Source: Escherichia coli (GTDB taxonomy: Bacteria; Pseudomonadota; Gammaproteobacteria; Enterobacterales; Enterobacteriaceae). From it: a DNA stretch of 64,000 nucleotides. The position numbers were made by a program, and so were the translations under genes. Of this stretch, positions 1 through 12,012 are shown in pieces (the first letter of the stretch is position 1; every line of letters begins with the position of its first letter). Below the pieces are notes generated by a model. That model had not been told where the DNA came from. It searched no databases and saw nothing but the letters and a program-made list of their open reading frames with translations. The stretch is from NCBI RefSeq assembly GCF_024223415.1, contig NZ_CP100500.1; one strand, given 5' to 3'.

Positions 1-235
1 GACGACATCAGCCGCTCCCACAGCCAGCAACTGAGAGTAACGAATATAGCTGTTATCCCGAAGCCATATCAGCGTATCAATAAAATACCGGCACTTTTTC
101 TGATCGTGATCAACCTGGTCCGGGATATCGAAAAAACCAGAATAAATCAAAACCTGAGGAGCCGGATGCGTGTTCAGTAATCGGCAGAATATTTTGCCGG
201 TGAGTACATAAAAATCATCATTTAAGGAGTGCATC

Positions 236-451
236 ATGAATCCCCGATTAACGTTAACAGAACATCAGCGCCGTGCCGAAGCAGTGAACAATGTTCTGGA
301 AGATATTATCCGGTTACATCGCGGAGAACTGAGTGTCTGTCGTGCCACTGTTCATTTTCAGGAAATACAAAAGCAGTTTGATACTTCTGTTTTTGCAGAA
401 GGGATCACTTATGCCCTGGACCAGATAAGGTCAGAAAATCGCCCCGGATAA
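236..451 (+). CDS. hypothetical small protein (71 aa), prophage-associated
   Basis: ORF with AAGGAG Shine-Dalgarno just upstream of ATG; no recognisable motif; lies upstream of a phage-type Dam methylase. Confidence 0.4.
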   Translation: MNPRLTLTEHQRRAEAVNNVLEDIIRLHRGELSVCRATVHFQEIQKQFDTSVFAEGITYALDQIRSENRPG

Positions 452-643
452 TCCCTAAACCACATTAACAGAAATCACTTCATCCCTGCCGCATCATGAA
501 AGAACGACCAGCCCGGTGCTTCGGACCCACCAGGCTGGCCATCGTCCCACAGGAATGCGCTGTGAGCCGACCGGGGTTCAGTCAGTCTCGCGAGACCAGA
601 CTAGCCTGCCATATTTTTAATAATTGTAAAAGGCTTACAGATT

Positions 644-1408
644 ATGAAAATGCAGACATTACCCATCGTTCCATGGATTGGTGGCAAACGTCGCCTGGCA
701 AAACACATCCTGCCGCTGTTTCCGGCGCATGAATGTTACGTGGAGCCGTTCTGCGGCGCAGCAGCGCTCTATTTTCTTAAGACACCTGGTAAGCTCGAAG
801 TCATTAACGATATCAATGGTGAACTGGTAAATCTGTATCGGGTGGTAAAACATCATCTGGAAGAATTTGTCCGCCAGTTCAAATGGGCGCTGGTCAGCCG
901 GCAGATCTACAAATGGCTGCAGATCACCCCGACAGAAACACTGACGGATATCCAGCGTGCAGCACGGTTCTACTACCTCCAGAAGCAGGCGTTTGGCGGC
1001 AAGGTGGCAGAGCACAGCTTCGGCACCTCCACCACATCCCCGCCACGCTTCAACCTGCTGCGTATCGAGGAAGAACTGTCAGCGGCACACCTGCGGCTTT
1101 CCAGAACGGTGATAGAACACATGGACTGGCAACAGTGCATTGAGCGCTATGACCGTCCGCACACGCTGTTCTACTGTGACCCGCCGTATCTGGGTACAGA
1201 AGGCTATGGTGTGGATTTTCCTGAAGGGAACTACTCGCGGCTGGCAGAGCTGGCCCGGTGCATCAGAGGAAAGATGATAATTTCGGTGAACGACATCCCG
1301 CAGATGCGCGAGGTGTTCACTGGACTGAACATACAGACAGTGAACATCAACTACAGTCTGGCAGGCAAATCAACTCCACGCCGTGAGCTGGTGATCTGCA
1401 ATTTCTAA
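644..1408 (+). CDS. Dam-family (D12 class) N6-adenine DNA methyltransferase, orphan/phage type
   Basis: N-terminal WIGGK AdoMet-binding motif (PWIGGKRRL) and catalytic DPPY motif (YCDPPYLGTEGY); no adjacent nuclease partner. Confidence 0.85.
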   Translation: MKMQTLPIVPWIGGKRRLAKHILPLFPAHECYVEPFCGAAALYFLKTPGKLEVINDINGELVNLYRVVKHHLEEFVRQFKWALVSRQIYKWLQITPTETLTDIQRAARFYYLQKQAFGGKVAEHSFGTSTTSPPRFNLLRIEEELSAAHLRLSRTVIEHMDWQQCIERYDRPHTLFYCDPPYLGTEGYGVDFPEGNYSRLAELARCIRGKMIISVNDIPQMREVFTGLNIQTVNINYSLAGKSTPRRELVICNF

Positions 1409-1526
1409 AAGCCATAACCGGAAAGTACAGTGCTTTCCGGTAAGCCCGCCGATTTCTGCCATGCTACTGACGGCGTTTTCTGAAAGCATCCAGATCAACC
1501 ACCTGTCCTTTCTGTCCAGGTCAGAA

Positions 1527-1865
1527 TCAGCCTGCGAGTTTGCCTGGTTTGGGTTGAATGAAGACTTTGCCGACCTCAAGAATTGCCCTCCGTTGTTCGG
1601 GGCTCATCTCGTCGAATGCATCCATTAACTCTTTCTTTTCTTGTGACATATAAGGTGCAACAACAGGCTGACTCCGCACCCCAGTAACTACATACAAAAC
1701 ATCTACACCGATTTCTGATAGTGCAGATAACTGCACTGCAGTAGGAGAAGTGCGATCTTTTTCCCAATCAATAAAAGTTCTCTTTGCCACACCGATAGCA
1801 TCAGCCAACCCTTGCTGTGTAAGAGATAGACGCTCTCTTTCTTCTTTAATACGTAACCCGATCAT
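1527..1865 (-). CDS. XRE-family helix-turn-helix repressor (prophage repressor candidate)
   Basis: track ORF 1527..2018 trimmed to internal Met (MIGLRIKEERERLSLTQQGLADAIGV...); classic HTH pattern; divergent from the Ner-like gene. Confidence 0.65.
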   Translation of the reverse strand: MIGLRIKEERERLSLTQQGLADAIGVAKRTFIDWEKDRTSPTAVQLSALSEIGVDVLYVVTGVRSQPVVAPYMSQEKKELMDAFDEMSPEQRRAILEVGKVFIQPKPGKLAG

Positions 1866-1889
1866 GTGAGTTTTTCTGCACTCTTTAAG

Positions 1890-1918
1890 TTGACTGGTGA
1901 GATAATCTGCACCATAAT
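1890..1918 (+). promoter_or_regulatory. candidate sigma70 promoter for the Ner-like/early operon (TTGACT - 17 bp - CATAAT)
   Basis: -35 TTGACT and -10 CATAAT separated by 17 bp, about 45 bp upstream of the 1966 start codon; sequence-only prediction. Confidence 0.3.
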
Positions 1919-1965
1919 CTATCACACATAAGGCAAACATCATTGCATCAACAAAGGAGACAACG

Positions 1966-2154
1966 ATGACTGCAGAACAAGTCAAAGCTCTCTTCCGCCA
2001 GCGCGGGATCACTTTCACCCGCTGGGCAGAAGAAAACGGCTACAACCGCAATGAGGTATACCGCGTTCTCAATGGGCAGAGCAAAGCACGTTACGGTAAA
2101 TCCCATGAAATCGCCGTGAAACTGGGGCTGAAATCAACAGCTCAGGCAGCCTGA
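1966..2154 (+). CDS. ner: Ner-like (Ner/Nlp family) small DNA-binding protein
   Basis: 62 aa; length and HTH layout resemble phage Mu Ner (GITFTRWAEENGY...GKSHEIAVKLGL); divergent from repressor, upstream of transposase. Confidence 0.6.
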   Translation: MTAEQVKALFRQRGITFTRWAEENGYNRNEVYRVLNGQSKARYGKSHEIAVKLGLKSTAQAA

Positions 2155-2200
2155 ATATTTTGATTCTTTGTAAAAGGTTATCACATATCGCAAAAGAGGT

Positions 2201-2515
2201 ATGCAGATGAGTAAGACGAATGTTTCAAGCTCCGGCAGTCGCATCCTCCGGGTACTCAAAGCGCTGCGCGGTCATGCCCTGAACGGTATTTCCAATGGTG
2301 AACTGGCGGCAGCACTGCACGAGTCACCGGCAAACATCAACCGGGCACTCAACACCCTCATTGAAGAAGGACTGGCCCTGAAACTGGAAAACGGGCGTTT
2401 CGCACCGGGCATCCAGTTGCTGCAGATCGCCATGGCCCACAGTAACGAGATGGCACGTGCACAGGATCGCATTAACGAAATCAACCAACGTGTCATTTCA
2501 GGTAGTCGTTTGTAA
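2201..2515 (+). CDS. winged-helix (IclR N-terminal-like) DNA-binding protein, function unknown
   Basis: 104 aa; SRILRVLKAL...ISNGELAAAL...INRALNTLIEEGL pattern typical of a winged HTH. Confidence 0.45.
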   Translation: MQMSKTNVSSSGSRILRVLKALRGHALNGISNGELAAALHESPANINRALNTLIEEGLALKLENGRFAPGIQLLQIAMAHSNEMARAQDRINEINQRVISGSRL

Positions 2516-2525
2516 GGAGTAATCA

Positions 2526-3443
2526 ATGGGACGCACCAAATCACCGGTTAACACTGAACTGAACGCCGAGGTACCGCTGTCGGATGATCTCAACGTCAGC
2601 CTGAATGCCATGACACAGCATCGCATGGAGATCATGCAGCAGTTTGGTGATGGACTGCCTTATGAACGTGATCGCATCGTTCACGAAGCACGTTTTTATA
2701 TGGCGCAGAGTGCTGAATCTATGCTGGAAGCGGGTAAACGGCTGATCATCTTAAAAGAAAATGAGCCACACGGGGACTTTGTTGGAATTGTAGAAGAACA
2801 ACTTGGTTTGCACGTGCGCGCAGCACAACGAATGATGAAAGCATCTTTGAAATACCTTTCACCAAAACTAGAGCCAAAAGCGACAACGTTGTCGCTTTTG
2901 GGTAAGGCAAAATTATTTGAACTTGTTGCTGAAGACGATGAAGACCTTGCCGAACTGGCCGACGGCGGCACAGTTGCCGGCCTGACGCTTGATGATGTTG
3001 ATCGCATGTCAGTACGTGAACTTCGCCAGGCCCTGCGTGAAGCGCGCGAAACTAACGCAGCTCAGCAACAGGTGCTTGCCGGAAAGGACGAAAAAATCAA
3101 CGAACTGGCCACAAAACTGGAGAAGAAATCCCGTATTCAACCGCCTGAGCCTGATGAAGAGGTGAAGAAGCTGCGGGCGGAAGTGACCGCATTAGCGGTT
3201 GAGGCGGAATCTGCCATCGCCGTCCGGCTCTCCGGTGCCTTTGAAACCCTGTGTGAATACTGCAGTAAAAACATGATTGATACCCCCAGAGATTTCATGG
3301 CCGGTCTGGTCTGCCAGATTGAACGCAGTGTTCATGCATTGCGTGAGACGTTCGACCTTGATGCCGCACCATCGGGTAACGATGCCCCCGCCTGGCTGAC
3401 CGAACCGGAGCCTGAAATCAACCGACCGGAGGGCATGCAGTAA
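2526..3443 (+). CDS. hypothetical protein (305 aa), acidic and coiled-coil rich
   Basis: good RBS (AAGGAG) upstream; no catalytic motif recognised; sits between Ner-like gene and transposase. Confidence 0.45.
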   Translation: MGRTKSPVNTELNAEVPLSDDLNVSLNAMTQHRMEIMQQFGDGLPYERDRIVHEARFYMAQSAESMLEAGKRLIILKENEPHGDFVGIVEEQLGLHVRAAQRMMKASLKYLSPKLEPKATTLSLLGKAKLFELVAEDDEDLAELADGGTVAGLTLDDVDRMSVRELRQALREARETNAAQQQVLAGKDEKINELATKLEKKSRIQPPEPDEEVKKLRAEVTALAVEAESAIAVRLSGAFETLCEYCSKNMIDTPRDFMAGLVCQIERSVHALRETFDLDAAPSGNDAPAWLTEPEPEINRPEGMQ

Positions 3444-3760
3444 TGAACACGGATAACACACAAAATATCCTGATGGACAGCCCGGAAGCACTGGGGCACG
3501 CACTGTGTAATCTGCTGCCGGAGATGGTGCAGGGTTTCCGCGTGGTGACACCTTCCGGTGAAATCTGCGTACCCGCACAGGAGGCGCATCCGTTTGTACT
3601 GACGATGGAAGTGATGCTGATGCAGCAGATAAGACGTCTGCAGCATCAGTCAGCATTGCGCCCGGCAGTTGCGCCGCAACCGGTAAATAACGTGGTGAAA
3701 ACCTGCGATGGCGAAACACTGTACGACCTCGCCAGAAAAATTGCCGCCAGAATCGGATAA
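3443..3760 (+). CDS. hypothetical protein (105 aa)
   Basis: start overlaps upstream stop (ATGA-type coupling); no motif recognised. Confidence 0.35.
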   Translation: MNTDNTQNILMDSPEALGHALCNLLPEMVQGFRVVTPSGEICVPAQEAHPFVLTMEVMLMQQIRRLQHQSALRPAVAPQPVNNVVKTCDGETLYDLARKIAARIG

Positions 3761-3775
3761 CAGGGAAGACAAGCT

Positions 3776-5545
3776 ATGACCCCGGCACTGACTGAAAAAC
3801 TTGTTGAAACAGCCCGCGCGGCACGTAATGCAGGGCATGGTAAACGCGGTGCAATATACGACGCTGCCTGTGCTGAACTTGGCATGTCCCGCGCCACTCT
3901 GCTGCGCAGGCTGAAGGAGGTCTCTGTGACTGATAAACGCAAAAAACGCGCCGATGCCGGACGCAGCACCCTGACCCGCGACGAAGCCGCGCTGATATCT
4001 GCCACACTACGTGAGGCCACCCGCAAGAACGGTAAGCGTCTCTATTCCATCGCGGATGCAGTGGAAACCCTGCGGGCTAACGGCTTTATCTCCGCAGGCA
4101 GAACAGATGAAACCACCGGTGAGTTTTTCCCGTTGTCCGAAGATGCCATCAGTCGTGCCCTGCGTAACTATGGCCTGCACCCGGAACAACTGGATGCCCC
4201 TGCACCGCATACCGAAGTGGCCAGTCTGCACCCCAATCATGTCTGGCAGATTGACGCCTCACTCTGCACGCTTTACTACCTGAGCAATGGACATAAAGGG
4301 CTGCAGGTGATGGACAGCGCGAAATTCTACAAGAACAAGCCCGCTAACCTTGCCCGTATCGCCAGTGACCGCGTGTGGAGTTACGAGATTACCGACCATG
4401 CCAGCGGCTGGATTTACGTTGAGTATGTGACGGGTGCGGAATCCGGTGAGAACCTGTGTTCTGTGCTTATCAACGCCATGCAGGAGCGTGGCGGCGCAGA
4501 CGTGCTGCACGGCGTGCCAAAAATACTCTATCTCGACCCCGGCTCGGCAAACACCGCGGGTATGACGAAAAACATGTGCCGCTCACTGGGCATCGACCTG
4601 ATAGCGCACAAGCCGCATAACGCCCGCGCCACCGGACAGGTGGAAAAGGCGCGTGACATTATCGAACGCAAGCTGGAGCCGGGTCTGAAGTTCCGGCCGG
4701 TTCACAGTCTGGAAGAACTCAACGCGCTGGCCGCGAAATGGCGCAGCCACTTTAACGCCACGGCTGTTCACAGCCGCCACGGTAAAACCCGCACGGATAT
4801 CTGGCTGAAGATTACTGCTGAGCAGCTGAAAAAAGCGCCTTCCGTTGAGGTATGTCGTGAACTGGCTGTGGCGGCACCAGAACTCCGCAAAGTCACGCCA
4901 AAACTTCGTGTCTCGTTCCGGGGCACTGAATTTGACGTATCAACGGTACCGGGCGTACTGGTCGGTGAAAAACTGATGATTACCCGTAACCCGTGGCGCA
5001 GCGATGTGGCACAGGTGGTTCTGACCGGTGAGGACGGCCACGAGACGTTCTTCCTGGTCGAAGAGGTCAGAAAGAACGAGTTTGGCTTTGCTGAAGGCGC
5101 GGCGGTATTTGGCGAAAGTTACAAAGCCCTGCCGGAAACCCCGGCGCAGATGGCGGCAAAAGAAACCGAAGCGCTGGTCACCGGTACAGACAACGCCGCA
5201 GATGCAGCTGCCGCACGCAAGGCGAAGGCGCTGCCGTTCGGCGGGCGGCTTGACCCGTATAAACATATTGATGACGCCACACTTCCGGCCTGTATACCGA
5301 AGCGTGGTCAGGCCTCTGACGTACGCGGACCGCGCACTGAACAGCGTCCCATGACTCATGTGGAGGCCGCGAAAGCCCTGCGCGGGAAGTTTAGCGCAAA
5401 CGGCCTGACCTGGACGCCGGAACATTACCGCCAGTTAACGGCACAGTACCCGGACGGCGTACCGGAAGCCGCACTGGATGAAGTCATGGCCACGCTGACC
5501 ACGCCGGCCCGCAGCAGCGTTATCAGCATTGTTAACGGCAACTGA
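3776..5545 (+). CDS. Mu-like DDE transposase (MuA-type, integrase catalytic core)
   Basis: 589 aa; N-terminal HTH region, central rve-like core (HVWQIDAS...), immediately followed by an AAA+ B-like gene as in transposable phages. Confidence 0.85.
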   Translation: MTPALTEKLVETARAARNAGHGKRGAIYDAACAELGMSRATLLRRLKEVSVTDKRKKRADAGRSTLTRDEAALISATLREATRKNGKRLYSIADAVETLRANGFISAGRTDETTGEFFPLSEDAISRALRNYGLHPEQLDAPAPHTEVASLHPNHVWQIDASLCTLYYLSNGHKGLQVMDSAKFYKNKPANLARIASDRVWSYEITDHASGWIYVEYVTGAESGENLCSVLINAMQERGGADVLHGVPKILYLDPGSANTAGMTKNMCRSLGIDLIAHKPHNARATGQVEKARDIIERKLEPGLKFRPVHSLEELNALAAKWRSHFNATAVHSRHGKTRTDIWLKITAEQLKKAPSVEVCRELAVAAPELRKVTPKLRVSFRGTEFDVSTVPGVLVGEKLMITRNPWRSDVAQVVLTGEDGHETFFLVEEVRKNEFGFAEGAAVFGESYKALPETPAQMAAKETEALVTGTDNAADAAAARKAKALPFGGRLDPYKHIDDATLPACIPKRGQASDVRGPRTEQRPMTHVEAAKALRGKFSANGLTWTPEHYRQLTAQYPDGVPEAALDEVMATLTTPARSSVISIVNGN

Positions 5546-5555
5546 GGAGGGAAAC

Positions 5556-6722
5556 ATGCTGGTACTGAAGCAGCAACTGAAAGAGGCCCGTATTCCACAG
5601 GCGGTGGCGGCGAGAGCTGTCGATGTTTCTGAGGCCACGCTGGCCCAGATTGTGAATCATAACGCGTGGCCCCGCACCAGCCCCGGAGAAGTGCGCCGGC
5701 GTCTTGCGTCCTGGCTGGAAAGTCAGGGGATTGATACAACGAAGAGTTTTGATGCTGTACAGGGCGCGGCCACGCCCCGTACAGCGAGTACCACAGATAA
5801 AACGAGCCTCAGTGAGGAAGAGAATATGTTACTCAAAAAACAGGTGTTATTTCCAGCAACCAAAAAAGCGTTTGGTCTTTTCCGTGACCCGTTCGCCGAC
5901 GAAGCCATGCAGGGTTCTGATGATGTGTTCACCACCCCGGACATTCGCTACGTGCGTGAGGCGCTGTACCAGACAGCCCGTCATGGTGGGTTTATGGCCG
6001 TCATCGGTGAGTCCGGTGCGGGTAAATCCACGCTGCGCCGCGACCTGACTGAACGTATTAACCGCGAGAATGCGCCGGTAATTGTTATCGAGCCATACAT
6101 CATTGCCATGGAAGACAACGATGTGAAAGGGAAAACCCTGAAGGCTGCAGCGATTGCCGAAGCCATTATCAGTACCATCGCACCACTGGAAAGCATCAGA
6201 CGCAGTCAGGACGCCCGCTTTCGCCAGTTGCATCGCGTCCTGAAAGGCAGCAGCCAGGCGGGGTTCAGCCACGTTCTGGTGATTGAGGAGGCCCACAGTC
6301 TGCCCATTCCGACACTGAAACACCTCAAACGCTTTTTTGAGCTGGAGTCCGGTTTCAAAAAACTGCTGTCCATCGTGCTGATTGGCCAGCCGGAACTGGC
6401 GACAAAACTGTCTGAACGCAATATGGAAGTCCGTGAAGTCGTTCAGCGCTGTGAGGTGGTCGAACTTCTGCCTCTGGACAATAACCTTGAAGAATTTCTG
6501 ACGTTCAAACTGCAACGGGCCGGTAAACAACTGACGGACATTATGGACGCCAGCGCAGTGGATGCCATACGTGCCCGCCTGAGCAATCCGGGAAGTCATC
6601 GTAAAAATATGGTCAGCCTGCTGTATCCGCTGGCCGTCAGTAACCTGGTAATAGCCGCCATGAATCTGGCCGCTGAAATCGGGGTTCCACAGGTCAACGC
6701 TGACGTTGTCAAAGGAGTTTAA
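5556..6722 (+). CDS. MuB-like AAA+ ATPase (transposition target-DNA activator)
   Basis: Walker A GESGAGKST, Walker B-like VLVIEEAH, N-terminal HTH; start set at ATG 5556 with GAGGAGG RBS (track ORF begins 5529). Confidence 0.8.
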   Translation: MLVLKQQLKEARIPQAVAARAVDVSEATLAQIVNHNAWPRTSPGEVRRRLASWLESQGIDTTKSFDAVQGAATPRTASTTDKTSLSEEENMLLKKQVLFPATKKAFGLFRDPFADEAMQGSDDVFTTPDIRYVREALYQTARHGGFMAVIGESGAGKSTLRRDLTERINRENAPVIVIEPYIIAMEDNDVKGKTLKAAAIAEAIISTIAPLESIRRSQDARFRQLHRVLKGSSQAGFSHVLVIEEAHSLPIPTLKHLKRFFELESGFKKLLSIVLIGQPELATKLSERNMEVREVVQRCEVVELLPLDNNLEEFLTFKLQRAGKQLTDIMDASAVDAIRARLSNPGSHRKNMVSLLYPLAVSNLVIAAMNLAAEIGVPQVNADVVKGV

Positions 6723-6724
6723 TA

Positions 6725-6994
6725 ATGAAATCCACCACAGGTATCAACCAGCAAATCAGCAAAGTGCAGTCAGCCATTATGGCGCTTAAGGCGACGAACA
6801 CGGATGTACAAAGCATCACCATCAGGGGTAACAAACCTGTCATCCGCGTTTCCCGGAGTGCGCATTGCATGCGCATGCTTGAGCAGGGAAAGGCCTGTTA
6901 TCTGTATACCGGACATGACCACAGGGGATATTTCCGTCAGGGCGTTTTCGAACTGCACGGCTGTCGCGTCGTGTGGCCGGAATCTTTGTGGTAA
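6725..6994 (+). CDS. hypothetical early-region protein (89 aa)
   Basis: AAGGAG RBS; no motif recognised. Confidence 0.45.
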   Translation: MKSTTGINQQISKVQSAIMALKATNTDVQSITIRGNKPVIRVSRSAHCMRMLEQGKACYLYTGHDHRGYFRQGVFELHGCRVVWPESLW

Positions 6995-7021
6995 TCAGCA
7001 CAACCGGAGAAATCATAAAAT

Positions 7022-7552
7022 ATGGCAAAAAGTACAAAAGGGGCAAAACGTATCAAGGCCGCAGCGGCACTCTGGGTACCAGGGACACGCGAAGAGGTCA
7101 TTGAGGGAATCAGACTACTCGGTGACGCACAACGTGAACTGGTCAGGGCTGAAACAGAAATGAATGACGCCATTGGCGATATCACCGCACGTTATGCCCC
7201 GCTCACCGAGAGCCTGAAAAAACGCATGGCCGAACTGCAGTCCGGTATTCAGACATGGTGTGAGGCACACCGTGATGAACTGACCGGCAACGGGAAGGTG
7301 AAGTTCGCTAACCTCACCACCGGCGAGGTGCAGTGGCGAAACCGTCCGCCATCAGTCAGTATCCGTGGGGCGGATAATGTTATTGAATTACTGAGACGTC
7401 TGGGGCTTGAGCGCTTTATTCGTGTAAAAGAGGAAATAAATAAAGACGCTATCCTGAATGAAAAAGAGGCCGTGAAAAATATTCCCGGTATTTCCATTAA
7501 AAGCGACATTGAGGATTTTTCAATAATTCCTTTTGAGCAGGATGTGCAGTAA
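7022..7552 (+). CDS. gam: Gam-like host-nuclease inhibitor (Mu Gam family, DNA-end binding)
   Basis: 176 aa; closely resembles phage Mu Gam along its whole length as recalled (N-terminal KRIK..AAA, central ETEMND, C-terminal EDFSIIPFEQ). Confidence 0.85.
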   Translation: MAKSTKGAKRIKAAAALWVPGTREEVIEGIRLLGDAQRELVRAETEMNDAIGDITARYAPLTESLKKRMAELQSGIQTWCEAHRDELTGNGKVKFANLTTGEVQWRNRPPSVSIRGADNVIELLRRLGLERFIRVKEEINKDAILNEKEAVKNIPGISIKSDIEDFSIIPFEQDVQ

Positions 7553-7649
7553 ACACACCACGTTAATTATTTAATAAAAACATTTTCTTTTTTATTCCGG
7601 CGTCAGCGCCGCGGGCTTCTGCACGCCGGAAACAGAGGAGAATTAAATC

Positions 7650-7844
7650 ATGATATTTAAATGTATTCAGTGCGAGAGGGATATAACAGCCCTGCGTTTT
7701 CACAGCGCCATCGCCGTGATGTCCGGTAAATACCACATCCCTGCGGTACGCGTCACCCTGGTCTGTCCGTACTGCAGCCAGCATTTTTCGGCAGACGTGC
7801 CCGTCATGGAATTCTCCCGCCCTGACAGGGAGGACGCGCAATGA
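7650..7844 (+). CDS. small zinc-ribbon protein (two CxxC pairs)
   Basis: CIQC ... CPYC; GAGGAG RBS. Confidence 0.45.
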   Translation: MIFKCIQCERDITALRFHSAIAVMSGKYHIPAVRVTLVCPYCSQHFSADVPVMEFSRPDREDAQ

Positions 7845-8113
7845 TTACCCCACAGGAAGCACGACAGCGCACCCGAACCCTTGTTGAACACTATGTCAAC
7901 GAGTGTGAATGTCGCGACCTCACCGATGTGAAGCACGTCCTGACGGCGCTAATCAGCATGGCCACACAGGCCATTGTGGCAACCAACGGAAAGGCGGCTG
8001 CCCTGCAGGTACTGATGAACACACTCACCCACACGGCAGAGCATGAGGTGCCGTACCGGATGGAAACCACTGCAGAAGGCGGCCTGCACATCACCGTCAG
8101 CCGGAAGCACTGA
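7841..8113 (+). CDS. hypothetical protein (90 aa)
   Basis: start overlaps upstream stop (ATGA); no motif recognised. Confidence 0.4.
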   Translation: MITPQEARQRTRTLVEHYVNECECRDLTDVKHVLTALISMATQAIVATNGKAAALQVLMNTLTHTAEHEVPYRMETTAEGGLHITVSRKH

Positions 8114-8122
8114 GGGTGCGGC

Positions 8123-8419
8123 ATGACACGAAACACCGAACTCACCCGCACCGCCCTCTACCGTCTGGCCCTGCAGCGTTTCGGGCCGGATGCACAGGCC
8201 CTGAAACTGACAGAAGAGGCCGCTGAACTGGCGGCCAGTGCTGCCCGCAACCTGAACGGACAGGGCAGCGAAAGTGACCTCGCGGCAGAGCTGGCAGACG
8301 TGGAAATCATGACAGAGCAACTGCGCCTTCAGGGGATGGACCGGCTGATTGACTTCCACAAACAGAAAAAACTGGAACGTCTGGCTGCACGACTGGGCGT
8401 GATTTACACGAACGAGTAA
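8123..8419 (+). CDS. MazG-like nucleotide pyrophosphohydrolase candidate (all-alpha NTP-PPase fold)
   Basis: 98 aa; EExxE ... ExxD acidic motif pair (EEAAELAAS ... AAELADVEIMTEQL) at MazG-like spacing. Confidence 0.5.
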   Translation: MTRNTELTRTALYRLALQRFGPDAQALKLTEEAAELAASAARNLNGQGSESDLAAELADVEIMTEQLRLQGMDRLIDFHKQKKLERLAARLGVIYTNE

Positions 8420-8433
8420 CCGGGAGGCATTCA

Positions 8434-8556
8434 ATGGCTGACATACTCAGGGAAATCACCGCATGGACACTGATTCTTACTGGTCTGGCGACATGCCTCA
8501 GTGCGGGAGCAGCCCTGGCTGCCCTGCTGATGCACATAACAACACAGTGGTTATGA
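8434..8556 (+). CDS. small hydrophobic peptide (40 aa, one predicted TM helix)
   Basis: not in supplied track (<60 aa); GGGAGG RBS about 7 nt upstream of ATG; hand-counted coordinates. Confidence 0.3.
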   Translation: MADILREITAWTLILTGLATCLSAGAALAALLMHITTQWL

Positions 8557-8645
8557 GAAAAGCTTAAAGCAGCATACAGCCTGAAAGAGCTGTCCGACGC
8601 TGTCCGGGCATGGAAACGGCAGAAAAATACCGGAGATACAGAACA

Positions 8646-9329
8646 ATGACAGACCAGAATAAACACATTGAGAAACTGAAAAAGTTGCTGGCGCTGGCCG
8701 CATCCGGCAACCCGCATGAGGCTGCTCTGGCACTGCGCCGCGCCCGTAAACTGATGGATGTTCACGGCATCACACATTCCGACATCGCCATGAGTGATAT
8801 TGATGAAACCATCAGTCACTACTGGCCGACAGGCAGCCTCCGTCCGCCGCGCTACATGCCAGGGCTGATGAACATCATCCGCGAGGCATTTGGTGTTAAC
8901 TCCATCATTCACCCCGGCACATATCCGGGTGTGGGGTTCTACGGCAAACGGGAACGGGCCGCACTGGCCGCGTACACCTGGGAAGTGCTGGCCCGTCAGC
9001 TGAAAAAGGCGCGTCAGCAGTATATCAGTGCACAGAACAAAAGAATAAAAACCGCCACCCGCACCAGCCGTGGAGACCAGTTTGCTGAAGGCTGGGTGCT
9101 GGCCGTTATCAGTGAAATACAGTCCTTCGCCCTGACCAATGACGAACGTGAACTGATGCAGCAGTGGCTGGAACATAAATACCCGCAGACGCAAACCACC
9201 AGGGCGCGTAAACCGGGAAGAAGTCGCAATGGCGACGCCTCGCGCTATGCGGGGTTTCGAGAAGGGCAGAACGTCAGACTGCACCGACCGGTCAGTGGGC
9301 GGGAACAGCAGAAACTGGAGGCCAGATGA
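8646..9329 (+). CDS. DUF2786-like phage protein
   Basis: track ORF 8610..9329 trimmed to Met with GGAGA RBS; N-terminal KLLALAASGNPHEAALALRRARKLM motif typical of this family. Confidence 0.5.
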   Translation: MTDQNKHIEKLKKLLALAASGNPHEAALALRRARKLMDVHGITHSDIAMSDIDETISHYWPTGSLRPPRYMPGLMNIIREAFGVNSIIHPGTYPGVGFYGKRERAALAAYTWEVLARQLKKARQQYISAQNKRIKTATRTSRGDQFAEGWVLAVISEIQSFALTNDERELMQQWLEHKYPQTQTTRARKPGRSRNGDASRYAGFREGQNVRLHRPVSGREQQKLEAR

Positions 9330-9556
9330 TGACGTTATCAGGTAACAGCCGGAAATTAAAAGCCTGCCGAATATCTGCCAGATACCTTTTTGCCCGCGCC
9401 TTTTTTAAGAACGTCAGGCCGGGGATCACAATTGGTGTTATTGCCGGACGCGAACAGGTTGAAAAATACATGTCAGGTGCATGGTGGAATAAAGACCCTG
9501 TCATTGCTGCCCGTAATATTCATATCAGTTGGGGAGATATTCAGAATGACTGCTGA
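9326..9556 (+). CDS. hypothetical protein (76 aa)
   Basis: GGAGG RBS; overlaps neighbours head-to-tail. Confidence 0.35.
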   Translation: MMTLSGNSRKLKACRISARYLFARAFFKNVRPGITIGVIAGREQVEKYMSGAWWNKDPVIAARNIHISWGDIQNDC

Positions 9557-9761
9557 ATCTGTTGTATGTGCCCTGTTCTGGTATTGTTTTGTCGGTTGGT
9601 GTACTGCTGAACTGCACCGCCGTTCAGGGTTTTATTCACGTTACAGTGGTGCCGGTTACTGGATTAGCTGGTCGGTGATGTTCCTGTGCTGGCCTGTGGC
9701 ATTTCCTTTATATGTCGATTATATCGGTGATGCAGGCAGAAGGAGCAACGATGATGACTAA
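9546..9761 (+). CDS. small Trp/Cys-rich membrane protein (71 aa)
   Basis: track ORF 9390..9761 trimmed to ATG 9546; hydrophobic. Confidence 0.35.
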   Translation: MTAESVVCALFWYCFVGWCTAELHRRSGFYSRYSGAGYWISWSVMFLCWPVAFPLYVDYIGDAGRRSNDDD

Positions 9762-10203
9762 ACAACGTCTTATCCAGCTTATCCATATTGCCCGTAATGA
9801 ACTGGGTATGGATGAAGACACCTACCGCCAGATGTTACAGGGGCTGACCGGTAAAGCCTCAACCAAAGGAATGGATACCACACAACTAAACTGCGTGCTG
9901 GAATCCATGAAAAGGAAAGGCTTTCGCGTTAAGCCTGCCGGAAAAGCCAGCTCCGGTTTACCGCTGGATAACCATCCGCAGTCCAGGAAAATCCGTGCGC
10001 TATGGCTTGAAATGGCTGCTGCCGGCATTGTTCGTGACCGTTCAGAAAATGCATTAGCGCGGTGGATCAAGCGGGAAACGGGCATCAGCGCCCTGCGCTG
10101 GCTCAATACTGAACAGGCAAGCAGTGTTATTGAGAAACTGAAGAAGTGGCAGCACAGAGCTGCGGGAGTAAAACATGAGCGACCTGAATCAGTTTCGAAG
10201 TAA
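9751..10203 (+). CDS. gemA: GemA-like protein (Mu GemA family)
   Basis: N-terminal KQRLIQLIHIARNELGMDEDTYRQML pattern; positioned directly upstream of mor as in Mu. Confidence 0.75.
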   Translation: MMTKQRLIQLIHIARNELGMDEDTYRQMLQGLTGKASTKGMDTTQLNCVLESMKRKGFRVKPAGKASSGLPLDNHPQSRKIRALWLEMAAAGIVRDRSENALARWIKRETGISALRWLNTEQASSVIEKLKKWQHRAAGVKHERPESVSK

Positions 10204-10573
10204 AGGGCCGGAACTCCTGGTGGAGCTGGCACAGCATACCTCTGAGACCGTTCGCGAGATTATTGATATTGAGCCCGCAATTGCCGACCAGATTGGTCAG
10301 GCCGTCGCGAACCGAATGATGCAGGTCTGGGGCGGGCAAAACGTTTATTTCCCGATGGGCATGGTATGGAAGGTCAGTCAGCGCGACCGGGAAATCTTCA
10401 GGGAGTTTAACGGACGCAACCACCACGAACTGGCCCGCAAGTTTGGTGTTTCGCTTCAGTGGGTCTACAGCGTGGTTAAGCGGGTCAGAAAAGAAGAACT
10501 GGATCGGATGCAGGGCAGGTTGTTTGATGAAGATCTGCCAGAGGAGACGAAAGACGTTAACAAATCCAGATAA
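10175..10573 (+). CDS. mor: Mor-family transcriptional activator (Mu middle operon regulator)
   Basis: 132 aa; C-terminal HTH REIFREFNGRNHHELARKFGVSLQWVYSVVKR typical of Mor/C family. Confidence 0.85.
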   Translation: MSDLNQFRSKGPELLVELAQHTSETVREIIDIEPAIADQIGQAVANRMMQVWGGQNVYFPMGMVWKVSQRDREIFREFNGRNHHELARKFGVSLQWVYSVVKRVRKEELDRMQGRLFDEDLPEETKDVNKSR

Positions 10574-10618
10574 TTCCTGCTTGTTAAAGTCCTTTCAAAA
10601 ATCTCCTTATTGTATAAA

Positions 10619-10649
10619 AGCACGGTAGACCCCGTACCGTGCTTTTTTT
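10619..10649 (+). terminator. rho-independent terminator downstream of mor
   Basis: GC-rich hairpin AGCACGGTA...TACCGTGCT followed by a run of 7 T. Confidence 0.5.
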
Positions 10650-10687
10650 ATGCTCTCTCTTTAGTATTCAGGATGCAGGGAGAAAAT

Positions 10688-11320
10688 ATGTTTGACGTTT
10701 CGTTGTTAAATCTGCCATGGGCAACACTGGTGACCCTGACCAGTGGCTATATTGGGTATTTTATTGCGAATGTGGGACTGAAGGATCACCACAAGCCCAT
10801 TGAGGTGACTTTTTCTTCGCTGATTTTTGGCCTGACAGCAATGATGGCTTACCAGGCTGTTATGTGGGCAGGTCTGAATGCCTGGCTGGCAACACCACCA
10901 GCACTTCTGTGTGCCGTTACATGCGGTGCGTGGTGGCGCAGGTACGGTCGCAAATGGATGTACAGATTACTGTGGAATAATGATATTTCATGGTCTGACG
11001 ATACCAGCTCAGCATGGCAGGCAATGTTTGATCAAACAGGCTTCAGCGTTACCGAGGTCAGAGTGATTCTTCGCGATGGTTCCGGTATGATGTCACGGCT
11101 GCCAGGGAACTTTGAACAGTGGCCTAACGGTCCGTTTACCCTGGGGAATAAAGGCGATATGGTTCTTTACGTCACGCACAGCAGCCCTTCAGGCAGTAAC
11201 GAATGGGAAGAGTATAAAGGCGTGGTTGATAAGTACTGGGGAGCTCTGGCAACCTATATTCCAGCAGATCAGATTGCCAGAGTGGAGATCAGGCGCGTTC
11301 GTGCAACGAACGATGAATGA
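10688..11320 (+). CDS. membrane protein (210 aa), N-terminal TM helices plus soluble C-terminal domain
   Basis: track ORF 10610..11320 trimmed to ATG 10688 (GGGAGAA RBS) because the upstream part overlaps the mor terminator. Confidence 0.5.
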   Translation: MFDVSLLNLPWATLVTLTSGYIGYFIANVGLKDHHKPIEVTFSSLIFGLTAMMAYQAVMWAGLNAWLATPPALLCAVTCGAWWRRYGRKWMYRLLWNNDISWSDDTSSAWQAMFDQTGFSVTEVRVILRDGSGMMSRLPGNFEQWPNGPFTLGNKGDMVLYVTHSSPSGSNEWEEYKGVVDKYWGALATYIPADQIARVEIRRVRATNDE

Positions 11321-11670
11321 TGTTTATTTTTTCCCTGGGGCAGGGGCTGCCGGCATAGTGGTTTTATTGGCAGAGGAAGACGATTCTCCTTTTCTACCGG
11401 AATCGCGCTCGAACGTCACGATGTGCTTGCTTTTGGGATTTTCTGAGTAATCCAGGCTATCATGCTTATTGTTTTGAGTAGTCATTGGAATCATCCTTTT
11501 TGTTGCGGGTCATGTTTCAGCAAACTCGATTCTAAGTTGCCAGGAAGGATGATTTCAATGCCCGACTTATCTATCGTATAGCGGAAAAGAATTTCAGTTC
11601 TGTTCACCAGAACCCATGTTAACCCACTCCAATTCGTTATTTATCTCACGGATCCCCCTTCATTTATCTC

Positions 11671-12012
11671 ATGTCTGATCAGGTGCGTAAGCTCTCTGGC
11701 GGCAACCAGCAGAAAGTTATCCTCGCGCGCTGCATGGCGCTCAATCCACGGGTGTTGATTGTCGATGAGCCGACGCGTGGCATCGACGTTGGAACCAAAT
11801 CGGAAGTGCACCAGGTGTTGTTTGATATGGCGAAAAAGGGCGTGGCGGTGATCGTGATCTCCTCCGATCTGCTTGAAGTGATGGCGGTGTCTGACCGGAT
11901 CATCACCCTTAGTGAAGGCCGGTTAACTGGCGAGATCCACGGTGACGACGCTAACGAAGAACGGCTGATGACGATGATGGCTATCAACCACAACGCCCTG
12001 AACGCGGCATAA
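11671..12012 (+). pseudogene. 5'-truncated sugar ABC transporter ATP-binding protein (C-terminal ~113 aa only)
   Basis: LSGGNQQK signature, Walker B LIVDEPTRGIDV; the N-terminal ~390 aa expected for a RbsA-like two-domain ATPase are missing. Confidence 0.8.

Follow-up and report, generated by a model that had tools for sequence, protein, structure and literature searches.

The window analysed here is a 64,000-nt stretch of Escherichia coli contig NZ_CP100500.1 (assembly GCF_024223415.1), and its left end carries an intact ORF that encodes a 254-aa DNA methyltransferase of the D12/Dam family of N6-adenine enzymes (Table 1). The motifs PWIGGK (residues 10-15), EPFCGAAA (residues 34-41) and DPPY (residues 179-182) follow one another in the order X-I ... 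IV and are invariant throughout the clade to which the enzyme belongs. Profile searches matched the protein to Pfam PF02086 (MethyltransfD12; E 1.1e-28, residues 11-234, model positions 1-248 of 253), to NCBIfam TIGR00571 of the dam subfamily (116.8 bits, cut-off 114.85) and to the PADLOC MTase_II profile PDLC03253 (E 1.3e-112). Judged by these matches, the product is a D12-class N6-adenine methyltransferase of the PF02086 alpha group, which bears out the proposal of an earlier note on this DNA that a solitary D12-class adenine methylase with WIGGK and DPPY motifs is encoded here. Purifying selection on the gene is strong (range 0.03-0.07), with dN/dS values of 0.03 relative to EC958 and 0.065 relative to GON1437, and by this measure the gene is selectively maintained. 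An AAGGC-type motif is kept across homologues at the same position ahead of the ATG, and the methylase was found in 526 of 5426 complete E. coli genomes (about 10%), many of them ST131.

Table 1. Features at the methylase locus and along the adjoining prophage arm (positions in the window; fold and promoter elements are predicted).
Feature	Position	Strand	Remark
phrog_2266-family gene, 5' part (134 aa in relatives)	1..236	-	starts at 236, leaves window at left edge
71-aa ORF, phrog_4490 (function-unknown family), putative coding	236..451	+	ORF call
Degenerate copy of late-promoter motif (TTCTGTTAATGTGGTTTAGGGA)	452..474	-	just downstream of RNA, on RNA strand
Conserved structured element, antisense to methylase leader	497..620	-	covariance-model match 491-620
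U-rich tail	501-497	-	not a canonical U-tract terminator
P1	579-576/505-502	-	predicted fold
Hairpin C	540-529/517-506	-	predicted fold
Hairpin B	571-560/552-541	-	predicted fold
Hairpin A	inner 597-593/588-584, outer 602-599/583-580	-	predicted fold
Probable RNA promoter, extended -10-like	603..630	-	-35 TTTACA 630-625, TG 611-610, -10 CAGGCT 608-603
Shine-Dalgarno region of methylase (AAAAGGCTT)	628..636	+	8-16 nt before ATG at 644
Methylase ORF	644..1408	+	254 aa
GC-rich hairpin between convergent methylase and repressor genes	1416..1440	.	terminator-like on minus strand
Repressor-like HTH gene	1527..2018 (RefSeq 1527-1865)	-	convergent with methylase
Rightward early operon after repressor	transposase 3776-5545; MuB/ExeA-like 5529-6722; gam 7022-7552; Mor near 10.2-10.6 kb		begins with ner-like gene
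Early-arm prophage terminus (...CATGTCTGATCA)	11670..11681	.	host DNA from about 11682

The enzyme itself is no novelty: 250 of its 254 residues (98%) match those of WP_000783854.1 of strain EC958, which we equate with REBASE M.EcoMIV (EC958_1101) of prophage Phi2 of E. coli ST131, and it is therefore already catalogued as a near-identical protein. In EC958, M.EcoMIV was transcribed at a level significantly below that of dam, and SMRT sequencing yielded no motif that could be assigned to it (Forde et al., 2015; PMC4659465); that publication neither remarks on the upstream RNA described below nor gives a recognition site. The two copies share the prophage type and the position between holin and repressor; they differ in the insertion site of the prophage, and their nucleotide identity is 93.7%. 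M.EcoGIX was considered as the nearest characterised enzyme and was set aside, being plasmid-borne and single-strand specific.

The GATC-specific enzymes EcoDam, T4 Dam and DpnM (PDB 2g1p, 1q0s and 2dpm) share with the methylase the Pfam family, the orphan status and the motif order WxGGK-FxGxG-DPPY, but their matches to it reach E-values of only 1e-14 to 1e-17. Similarly, the Dam equivalog model NF008152 scored the protein at 67.2 bits (cut-off 441). In an alignment numbered on EcoDam, residues K9, L122, R124 and P134 are replaced in the methylase by P10, K120, A122 and S132; these four EcoDam positions are reportedly the GATC contacts described by Horton and colleagues in 2006. The clade has a conserved hairpin of its own, FGGK..FGTSTT. 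Since the GATC-contact residues of EcoDam are missing, the target is probably something other than plain GATC and is unlikely to be read in the manner of EcoDam. The designation "Dam-type" in the earlier note consequently holds for the family, as defined by TIGR00571, and fails for an orthologue of Dam, given the equivalog score (67 against 441 bits) and the replaced contact positions. The observed/expected ratio of GATC was 0.60 in the 11.7-kb prophage arm and 0.94 in host DNA, in a sample too small to interpret.

Among nine neighbouring proteins drawn from six arrangements of the locus, no match to a nuclease or PADLOC component was found, with the exception of one weak match to a 2TM effector, and PADLOC gave no support for a restriction or defence partner hidden among the neighbour genes. 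The genes flanking the methylase vary from one related phage to another, and the term "orphan" therefore stands, as does the accompanying claim that the enzyme lacks a nuclease partner. The small ORF that had been noticed ahead of the methylase exists and matches phrog_4490. Its product contains a single Cys and hence no CxxC zinc-ribbon motifs; it differs from the ST131 copy by 9 nt and 5 aa and is missing from many relatives. We regard this ORF as variable cargo; the partner conserved with the methylase is, in our view, an RNA element on the minus strand.

The methylase lies some 10.3 kb in from the early-arm end of a BcepMu-like transposable prophage, in the variable region that separates the repressor from the late lysis/structural operon. 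Traits of the BcepMu type are present, namely a DDE transposase, a MuB/ExeA-like ATPase, Gam and Mor, and the genes are ordered as in BcepMu, with the repressor central and the late operon diverging; the late genes lie to the left of the window, and the repressor and regulatory region are central. The closest sequenced phage is PhiKM, which is classified as a Bcepmuvirus. A single phage end falls within the window, and the host gene broken there encodes a sugar ABC-transporter ATPase, truncated, from about position 11682. The same prophage occurs elsewhere in tnaB of strain LH10-b-1, flanked by a duplicated 6-bp target (GTTATC), and between aroA and ycaL in ST131. The terminus at 11681 and these other insertion sites place the methylase within the prophage and not in neighbouring island DNA, which answers the question that the earlier note had raised in asking for the element ends to be mapped. 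Its observation that the methylase adjoins the repressor of a Mu-type element also holds, in that a repressor-like HTH gene lies next to the methylase and converges with it.

The otherwise "empty" 190 nt between the 71-aa ORF and the methylase contain an element, passed over in the earlier note, that is predicted to be transcribed on the minus strand from about position 597 to about 497, giving an RNA of about 100 nt. In the predicted fold, a hairpin at the 5' end and a three-way junction precede a pyrimidine/U-rich tail. The folding energy of the window sequence was -63.9 kcal/mol on the minus strand (z -4.6) and -49.5 kcal/mol on the plus strand, and the RNA strand folded better in five of six divergent homologues, the exception being that of phiE125, in which the sense strand was slightly better. 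In a MAFFT alignment, standard pairs occupied 98.5% of the cells and double changes were seen in 11 of the 36 pairs. In a broader, model-fitted alignment, double changes were seen in 35 of 36 pairs, many of them mostly G-U; this alignment leans towards the structure because it was fitted to the model. None of 500 shuffles reached the observed values, and slid controls were at most 52% paired. The RNA retains about 88% identity where the neighbouring gene has reached saturation at its synonymous sites (dS 1.34), with stems and short single-stranded stretches highly conserved and loops variable. Taken together, the covariation and the alignment models argue for a conserved structured RNA on the strand antisense to the methylase.

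No Rfam 15 family matched the element on either strand, be it in positions 1-2300 of the window (E<=1) or in five divergent homologous loci (E<=5), and a full-text literature search with fragments of the RNA sequence returned no match. A riboswitch or SAM-sensing leader was considered and rejected, there being no Rfam match and no pocket in the junction; the three-way junction has almost no unpaired nucleotides and so leaves no room for a ligand pocket. A "D12-methyl" motif is said to have been described by Weinberg and colleagues in 2017. The likeness is by association only, that of a structured RNA beside a D12 methyltransferase gene, and the element is unlikely to be identical with that motif. 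Antisense regulators of restriction-modification genes or of toxic genes share the cis-antisense layout, a likeness of kind only.

A probable promoter for the RNA, of an extended -10-like type, was recognized from the sequence on the minus strand, 33-41 nt from the methylase ATG. It predicts an RNA start at about 597-595, and its -35 region overlaps the ribosome-binding region of the methylase. A [T/C]AnnnT hexamer was present at a fixed position in 52 of 56 unique homologues and was preceded by TGn in 30, and the stretch upstream of the hexamer is AT-rich and unconserved. The hexamer TACAAT (627-622) had been a candidate -10 for the RNA and was displaced by TGnTAnnnT (611-603), which is kept in distant homologues; the former hexamer became part of the -35 region. 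With a start near 597, transcription would miss the 5' arm of hairpin A's outer helix, although that helix covaries somewhat (81% paired). Scanning of the upstream sequence revealed no convincing plus-strand promoter for the methylase, so that the methylase mRNA can only be assumed to overlap the RNA. We also asked whether the RNA might serve the late lysis operon as a 5' leader or an attenuator, in the style of lambda 6S/tR' or HK022 put, since a holin gene follows it in the simplest arrangement. An intact late-promoter motif, cTTAA-N5-6-TTTAA[A/T]AT, stands upstream of holin, tail and baseplate genes in the same prophage and is common to four late operons. In the simple arrangement (locus L009) this motif stands between the RNA and the holin gene, that is, downstream of the RNA, and the leader model was rejected for this reason; the lack of any gene downstream of the RNA on its own strand in some phages also counts against it.

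Of 80 phage contigs, at least 66 place the RNA head-to-head with a methylase of this clade; these comprise 59 of 80 IMG/VR loci at E<=0.01 and seven more with filters off. Covariance-model matches lying upstream of the methylase and antisense to it were also obtained in Pseudomonas UMP151 (74 bits), Burkholderia phiE125 gp27 (44 bits), Acinetobacter Acba_14 (26 bits) and Mae-JY22 (31 bits). BcepMu carries no methylase and gave no RNA match, and no RNA match was found beside methylases at <=42% identity. In pattern and model searches, no copy of the RNA was found away from a methylase or methylase remnant, and a scan of IMG/VR with the type-2 RNA pattern returned the source locus only. Sequence comparison thus shows the RNA to be linked to the methylase clade and not to the phage backbone, in a mobile two-part cassette shared by unrelated phages. 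The gp27 methylases of phiE125 and phi1026b, for example, are about 65% identical, belong to the same clade and have the same antisense element directly upstream, but these phages are lambda-like siphoviruses in which the methylase lies behind the lysis genes on the same strand. The activity of phiE125 gp27 was reportedly examined by Woods and colleagues in 2002. In a subset of the cassettes, a zinc-ribbon ORF resembling Mu Com lies between the RNA and the methylase (UMP151, PF10122, E 3e-23; eight IMG/VR loci); such an ORF is absent from the window. In E. coli A24 the RNA is retained and the methylase is gone beyond its first 46 nt, a case in which the RNA could have a function of its own.

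The explanation that we favour, with a probability of about 0.55, is that of a mom-like, tightly silenced and self-protective modification cassette in which the divergent RNA serves as silencer. The cassette would work like the com-mom operon of Mu: the methylase would be made in lytic growth, marking progeny DNA against restriction in the next host, and would be kept off in the lysogen, where we propose that untimely methylation is costly. The silencing device would be the divergent promoter together with its RNA of roughly 100 nt; it would compete with a weak methylase promoter that it overlaps, base-pair with methylase-operon transcripts running through the region, or do both. In this reading the RNA probably helps to hold the methylase switched off, and the low transcription of the 98%-identical M.EcoMIV, with no motif assigned to it, supports silence in the lysogen. 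In Mu, the modification gene is cytotoxic, expressed late and gated by Com at translation, and the divergent promoter momP2 competes with the weak modification promoter (PMC3378877; Hattman, 1999, cited there). Both systems concern a DNA-modification gene of a transposable phage, and relatives of the present cassette carry a genuine Com homologue (PF10122); in contrast, the enzyme here is a SAM-dependent methyltransferase in place of Mom, the window copy has no com, and the cassette lies centrally in the genome, whereas that of Mu is at the right end. Furthermore, the divergent promoter here appears to yield a conserved, highly structured RNA; to our knowledge, no such RNA has been described for momP2. 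A tentative extension, to which we give somewhat less than an even chance, is that the RNA represents an undescribed family of phage noncoding RNAs, the dedicated partner of one orphan D12 clade in phages of gamma- and beta-proteobacteria, and a switch that times DNA methylation through antisense pairing or promoter competition. A direct action of the RNA on the activity or targeting of the methylase would be more speculative.

Other readings of the locus were weighed against the silenced cassette. The element might belong to the mRNA of the methylase (or of com and the methylase), as a cis-regulatory structure in its sense-strand 5' leader, be it protein-binding, Com-type or riboswitch-like. 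Its constant position immediately 5' of the methylase operon would suit such a leader, as would the phiE125 fold, and Watson-Crick pairs are symmetric between strands. However, when the alignment was folded independently on each strand, the RNAalifold consensus was -51.8 kcal/mol for the minus strand and only -30.1 kcal/mol for the plus strand, and 154 G-U cells of the minus strand become A-C on the plus strand, lowering the paired fraction from 99.6% to 88.7%. With the promoter-like TGnTAnnnT motif also reading on the minus strand and the junction too tight for a ligand, we regard a sense leader as improbable. The same G-U asymmetry is unexpected for protein-binding palindromes and bears on the proposal that the element acts at the DNA level only, through overlapping promoters and regulator-binding palindromic operators, with no functional RNA fold. 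Hairpin A is indeed a near-perfect palindrome at the predicted -10 and start site, and the conserved block contains a -10-like hexamer; yet three further helices of 4-13 bp each stay paired through wholesale replacement of their sequence, and it would be unusual for operator half-sites to diverge into unrelated sequence and yet remain complementary. A DNA-only element is, to our mind, the least probable of the alternatives.

The RNA could also be an autonomous, trans-acting phage sRNA, directed at the lysis-lysogeny decision, at host genes or at anti-defence, that merely hitch-hikes with the methylase. E. coli A24 and one further locus (L052, copy 1), which keep the RNA and its promoter with only about 46-52 nt of the methylase, are in keeping with this, and so is the conservation of stems and short single-stranded stretches around variable loops. 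On the other hand, the linkage to the methylase clade extends over unrelated backbones and hosts, in a head-to-head layout throughout, and the searches described above detected no copy away from a methylase or its remnant, which makes an autonomous role unlikely, if less so than the other alternatives. A last reading has the methylase active in the lysogen, as an epigenetic regulator of the host or a "molecular vaccine" against incoming restriction-modification systems. The spread of the orphan enzyme through successful clones would fit, as would a sizeable RNA-seq signal, possibly not strand-specific, that was recorded for the phi1026b homologue in a Burkholderia lysogen (PMC2920897). Against it stand the EC958 data, in which M.EcoMIV was transcribed below dam and gave no SMRT motif (PMC4659465), and the Com-gated relatives, which point to late and gated expression. 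We consider activity in the lysogen very improbable, and the suggestion in the earlier note that such a methylase might alter host regulation is disfavoured, as far as the lysogen is concerned, by the same EC958 results.

What is new at this locus is the conserved minus-strand RNA element and the cassette that it forms; the methylase alone is ordinary. Roughly a tenth of complete E. coli genomes, with pandemic ST131 among them, carry prophage methylases of this clade, and methylome studies have repeatedly listed these enzymes as "silent, specificity unknown". A divergent, conserved RNA or promoter placed before the gene would offer a concrete and testable reason for this silence, and mutation of the -10 would provide a handle with which to switch the methylase on and read its recognition site. 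Should the RNA prove to be a regulator, the multi-layer gating of a hazardous DNA modification known from Mu mom would apply also to SAM-dependent methyltransferases of many unrelated phages, and phage biology would gain a new RNA family.

The mapping also amends existing annotations, in addition to assigning the gene to the prophage. A longer methylase starting from the ATG at 496 was rejected: the ORF 496..732 is in a different frame and overlaps the RNA, and its conservation is not codon-like. The 284-aa methylase annotated in PhiKM probably reflects an over-extended start that overlaps the RNA.

Among phages with differing genes upstream, the ~150 nt preceding the methylase ATG were found to be more conserved than the coding sequence. 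Pattern scans of IMG/VR and GTDB genomes recovered >50 loci with ~40 distinct variants, all in Enterobacterales. Several lines of evidence assign the conserved structure to the minus strand, opposite to the methylase. The window sequence folded at -63.9 kcal/mol (z -4.6) on this strand vs. -49.5 kcal/mol (z -2.1) on the plus strand, the independently folded alignment gave -51.8 and -30.1 kcal/mol, respectively, and 99.6% of cells in the minus-strand consensus pair, with 154 G-U cells that become A-C on the plus strand. The element consists of a 5′ hairpin (A), a three-way junction in which helix P1 (GAAC/GUUC) encloses hairpin B (variable loop) and GC-rich hairpin C (12-13 bp), and a pyrimidine/U-rich tail. 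In three divergent variants (copy 2 of locus L052, Citrobacter braakii and Salmonella diarizonae), the sequences of A, P1, and C are replaced and pairing is kept. A MAFFT alignment of 32 variants had 98.5% standard-pair cells and both-side changes in 11 of 36 pairs, values reached by 0 of 500 shuffles, and slid controls paired at ≤52%. A second alignment, of 57 distinct sequences, was fitted to the element's covariance model (R1), so that its counts lean towards structure: 94.6% of cells pair, 35 of 36 pairs show double changes, and there are 433 double-change cells vs. 114 in shuffles (slid controls ≤48%). Despite the model-fitting, pairs such as CG 18/UA 18/GC 14 are hard to explain without structure. 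We consider it very likely that a conserved element exists, and likely that it is a minus-strand RNA.

Searches with R1 placed the element in antisense orientation directly upstream of methylase homologues from quite different phage types (Pseudomonas UMP151, 74 bits; Burkholderia phiE125 gp27, 44 bits; Mae-JY22, 31 bits; Acinetobacter Acba_14, 26 bits). No R1 match was obtained in BcepMu, a phage with no methylase, or beside methylases of ≤42% identity. Among 80 IMG/VR loci fetched via the methylase protein (63-98% identity), the element was detected in 59 at E ≤ 0.01 and in seven more with filters off, always upstream of the methylase and on the opposite strand. The occurrence of the RNA tracks that of the methylase rather than the phage backbone. 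Where present, a gap of ~170-210 nt between the two holds an ORF resembling the Mu zinc-ribbon protein Com (PF10122, E 3e-23 in UMP151; CxxC...CPRC pattern in eight IMG/VR loci). Natural deletions in E. coli A24 and L052 copy 1 have left the RNA and its predicted promoter together with no more than the first 46-52 nt of the methylase; in A24, 46 nt are kept and the remainder is replaced. L052 (IMGVR_UViG_2737471845_000031) has two RNA copies, the first beside a 52-nt methylase remnant, followed by an inserted phrog_2266 gene and a divergent RNA with an intact methylase. These arrangements look like recombination scars, and their break points suggest that the edge of the RNA unit lies ~50 nt into the methylase gene. 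In 'Microcystis phage Mae-JY22' (PP438414.1), the matched RNA has 71% G+C and adjoins a methylase that shares ~60% identity with the enzyme of the E. coli prophage; these features are odd for a Microcystis phage, and the host assignment may deserve a check.

A [T/C]AnnnT hexamer (TAGGCT, CAGGCT, TAGCCT, TAGAAT, TAGACT, and others) occupies a fixed position just 5′ of hairpin A in 52 of 56 unique homologues, with TGn before it in 30 and AT-rich, unconserved sequence upstream. We read it as the predicted extended -10 promoter of the RNA. The start predicted from it would leave the 5′ arm of hairpin A's outer helix, the weakest helix (81% paired), untranscribed, and thus fits awkwardly. No Rfam 15 family matches the element, and none of its sequence fragments was found in the searchable full-text literature. 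A 'D12-methyl' motif was reportedly described by Weinberg et al. in 2017, but in view of the negative Rfam scan identity with it is unlikely. Neither the RNA nor its obligate association with the methylase clade and Com appears to have been described.

Coordinates of features in the window and in comparison loci (L001, PhiKM; L002, LH10-b-1 region; L071, E. coli A24)
Feature	Sequence	Position	Strand
phrog_2266-family gene (leaves left edge)	window	1-236	-
71-aa ORF (phrog_4490)	window	236-451	+
Late-promoter-like motif, degenerate	window	452-474	-
78-aa ORF, probably spurious	window	496-732	+
Structured element	window	~497-620	-
RNA end, predicted	window	~497	-
RNA start, predicted	window	~597	-
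Predicted -10, CAGGCT	window	608-603	-
Predicted TG	window	611-610	-
Predicted -35, TTTACA	window	630-625	-
Methylase	window	644-1408	+
Repressor-like HTH gene	window	1527-2018	-
Prophage arm	window	1-11681	
Host DNA	window	11682-64000	
Late-promoter-like motif	L002	~3830	-
Late-promoter-like motif	L002	~11247	-
Late-promoter-like motif	L003	~11582	-
Late-promoter-like motif	L003	~17933	-
phrog_3787 cargo gene	L002	11195-11857	+
phrog_3787 cargo gene	L052	3417-4160	+
phrog_2266-family copy	L002	11833-12236	-
Methylase as annotated	L001	3913-4767	
RNA with methylase remnant	L071	4347-4546	
Apparent recombination scar with two RNA copies	L052	4794-5584	

The earlier note had called the gene a D12-class adenine methyltransferase, and the 254-aa product bears this out, with PWIGGK, EPFCGAAA, and DPPY motifs. 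Pfam PF02086 (D12 class N6-adenine methyltransferase) covers it end to end (E 1.1e-28), its score is narrowly above the cut-off of the NCBIfam 'dam subfamily' model (116.8 vs. 114.85 bits) and far short of that of the E. coli Dam equivalog model (67 vs. 441 bits), and it matches a PADLOC type II methyltransferase model dedicated to its cluster (PDLC03253, E 1.3e-112). The nearest solved structures are DpnM (E 6.5e-17) and EcoDam (E 3.5e-14). In a phmmer alignment, EcoDam K9, L122, R124, and P134, which we take to be the residues contacting GATC in EcoDam-DNA structures, are replaced by P, K, A, and S; DpnM retains Dam-type residues there. Because these contacts are replaced and the clade has an invariant hairpin of its own (FGGK..FG(T)..TT), we infer that the methylase does not read GATC as Dam does. 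GATC was observed 27 times in the prophage arm vs. 45 expected (ratio 0.60, a small sample) and was not under-represented in host DNA (0.94). In PhiKM, the annotated methylase has 284 aa; its upstream start overlaps the RNA gene, and the annotation is probably too long. The 78-aa ORF, from ATG 496, is read in a different frame from the methylase, whose start it overlaps along with the RNA.

REBASE already lists the methylase, as an uncharacterized entry. The same prophage is present in E. coli EC958 (ST131), where segment 1005540-1007607, its tail-fibre inversion, was published as that of prophage Phi2 (PMC4134206). This prophage encodes a single D12 methylase, WP_000783854.1, which shares 250 of 254 residues with the window protein; we equate it with M.EcoMIV (EC958_1101), the Phi2-borne orphan PF02086 enzyme (Forde et al., PMC4659465). 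Transcription of M.EcoMIV was significantly below that of dam in mid-log LB cultures, no SMRT motif was assignable to it, and none of its homologues of >65% identity had a known site (PMC4659465). The window and EC958 genes differ at 48 nt (43 synonymous and five non-synonymous; dN/dS 0.03), and comparison with the GON1437 copy gave a dN/dS of 0.065 (dS 1.34). These low ratios indicate that the methylase is functional and constrained, though quiet in lysogens. Homologues of ≥85% identity occur across Enterobacterales.

Whether the methylase belongs to the Mu-like element or to island DNA had been left open; mapping of the ends placed it ~10.3 kb inside the prophage. Positions 1-2400 match part of the E. 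coli LH10-b-1 genome at 99.9% identity, and 478 of 5426 complete E. coli genomes contain this stretch, mostly whole. In LH10-b-1, a ~38-kb prophage carries the methylase in its middle, with tail, head, and lysis genes on one strand to the left and a repressor, a ner-like gene, a DDE transposase, a MuB/ExeA-like gene, gam, and Mor to the right. Burkholderia phage BcepMu has the same gene order, and the nearest sequenced phage, PhiKM, is classified as Bcepmuvirus. The LH10-b-1 prophage interrupts tnaB with a 6-bp duplication (GTTATC) and has the ends TGATGCGCC...GATAAATG and ...CATTTATCTCATGTCTGATCA. The same right-hand terminus (...CATGTCTGATCA) occurs at position 11681, with a truncated gene for a sugar ABC-transporter ATPase directly after it, and the window therefore starts within the prophage. 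The ST131 prophage lies between aroA and ycaL, and such differing sites are as expected for transposition-type integration. A motif, cTTAA-N5-6-TTTAA[A/T]AT, precedes the holin, tail, and baseplate operons and, as a variant, the head operon, on the late-gene strand only; its copies are probably Mor/C-dependent late promoters. The holin and head copies are followed downstream by a CTGTCTCC...GGAGAC hairpin, which overlaps the Shine-Dalgarno sequence. The holin gene follows the RNA in the simplest arrangement, which suggested a late-operon leader; this was ruled out by the motif, common to all four operons, between RNA and holin gene, and phiE125, with no gene after the RNA on its strand, also argues against it.

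In phage Mu, the late, cytotoxic Mom function modifies phage DNA and protects it from restriction, and mom is gated by an activator-dependent weak promoter, Com-dependent translation, and a competing divergent promoter, momP2 (PMC3378877). By analogy, the present cassette would behave like com-mom: the divergent promoter, overlapping the methylase ribosome-binding region, would make a stable structured RNA, and silencing could occur by promoter competition, transcriptional interference, or pairing with transcripts crossing the region. Silencing of this kind would reconcile the silence of M.EcoMIV in lysogens with the strong purifying selection acting on it. That the RNA is the methylase's silencer is held tentatively (probability roughly 0.45). 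Overall, the locus would be a gated phage DNA-modification cassette, not a categorically new system.

The remnant in A24 would also suit a trans-acting sRNA that is autonomous and is simply carried along with the methylase, but the head-to-head linkage of the two is invariable and makes this unlikely. A sense-strand leader is opposed by the strand asymmetry of the structure and seems quite unlikely, and action of the methylase in the lysogen, against which the EC958 data speak, is improbable. Four co-varying helices with G-U asymmetry leave a purely DNA-level regulatory region highly improbable.

Among the genes around the cassette, the 71-aa ORF and the convergent repressor-like gene lie where the earlier note had placed them, and its claim that the methylase lacks a nuclease partner also held: nine neighbour proteins, drawn from six arrangements, gave no match to a nuclease or defence component apart from one weak 2TM effector hit. 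Flanking genes vary among E. coli, Klebsiella, and other relatives. The 71-aa ORF is missing from many relatives; it appears weakly constrained, given 9 nt and 5 aa differences from the ST131 copy, and its status as a real gene is uncertain. Its start overlaps that of the divergent phrog_2266-family gene, which appears intact as far as it lies in the window; in LH10-b-1, a 1-nt deletion shifts the frame of the nearly identical copy. The phrog_3787 cargo protein, whose gene adjoins the holin gene to the left of the window, had no PADLOC match and carries a Walker A motif (GPVGSGKS); the E. coli A24 gene at its position, placed with it by position only, has a KAP-family NTPase annotation. The gene inserted in L052 is a phrog_2266 paralogue (126-154 aa).
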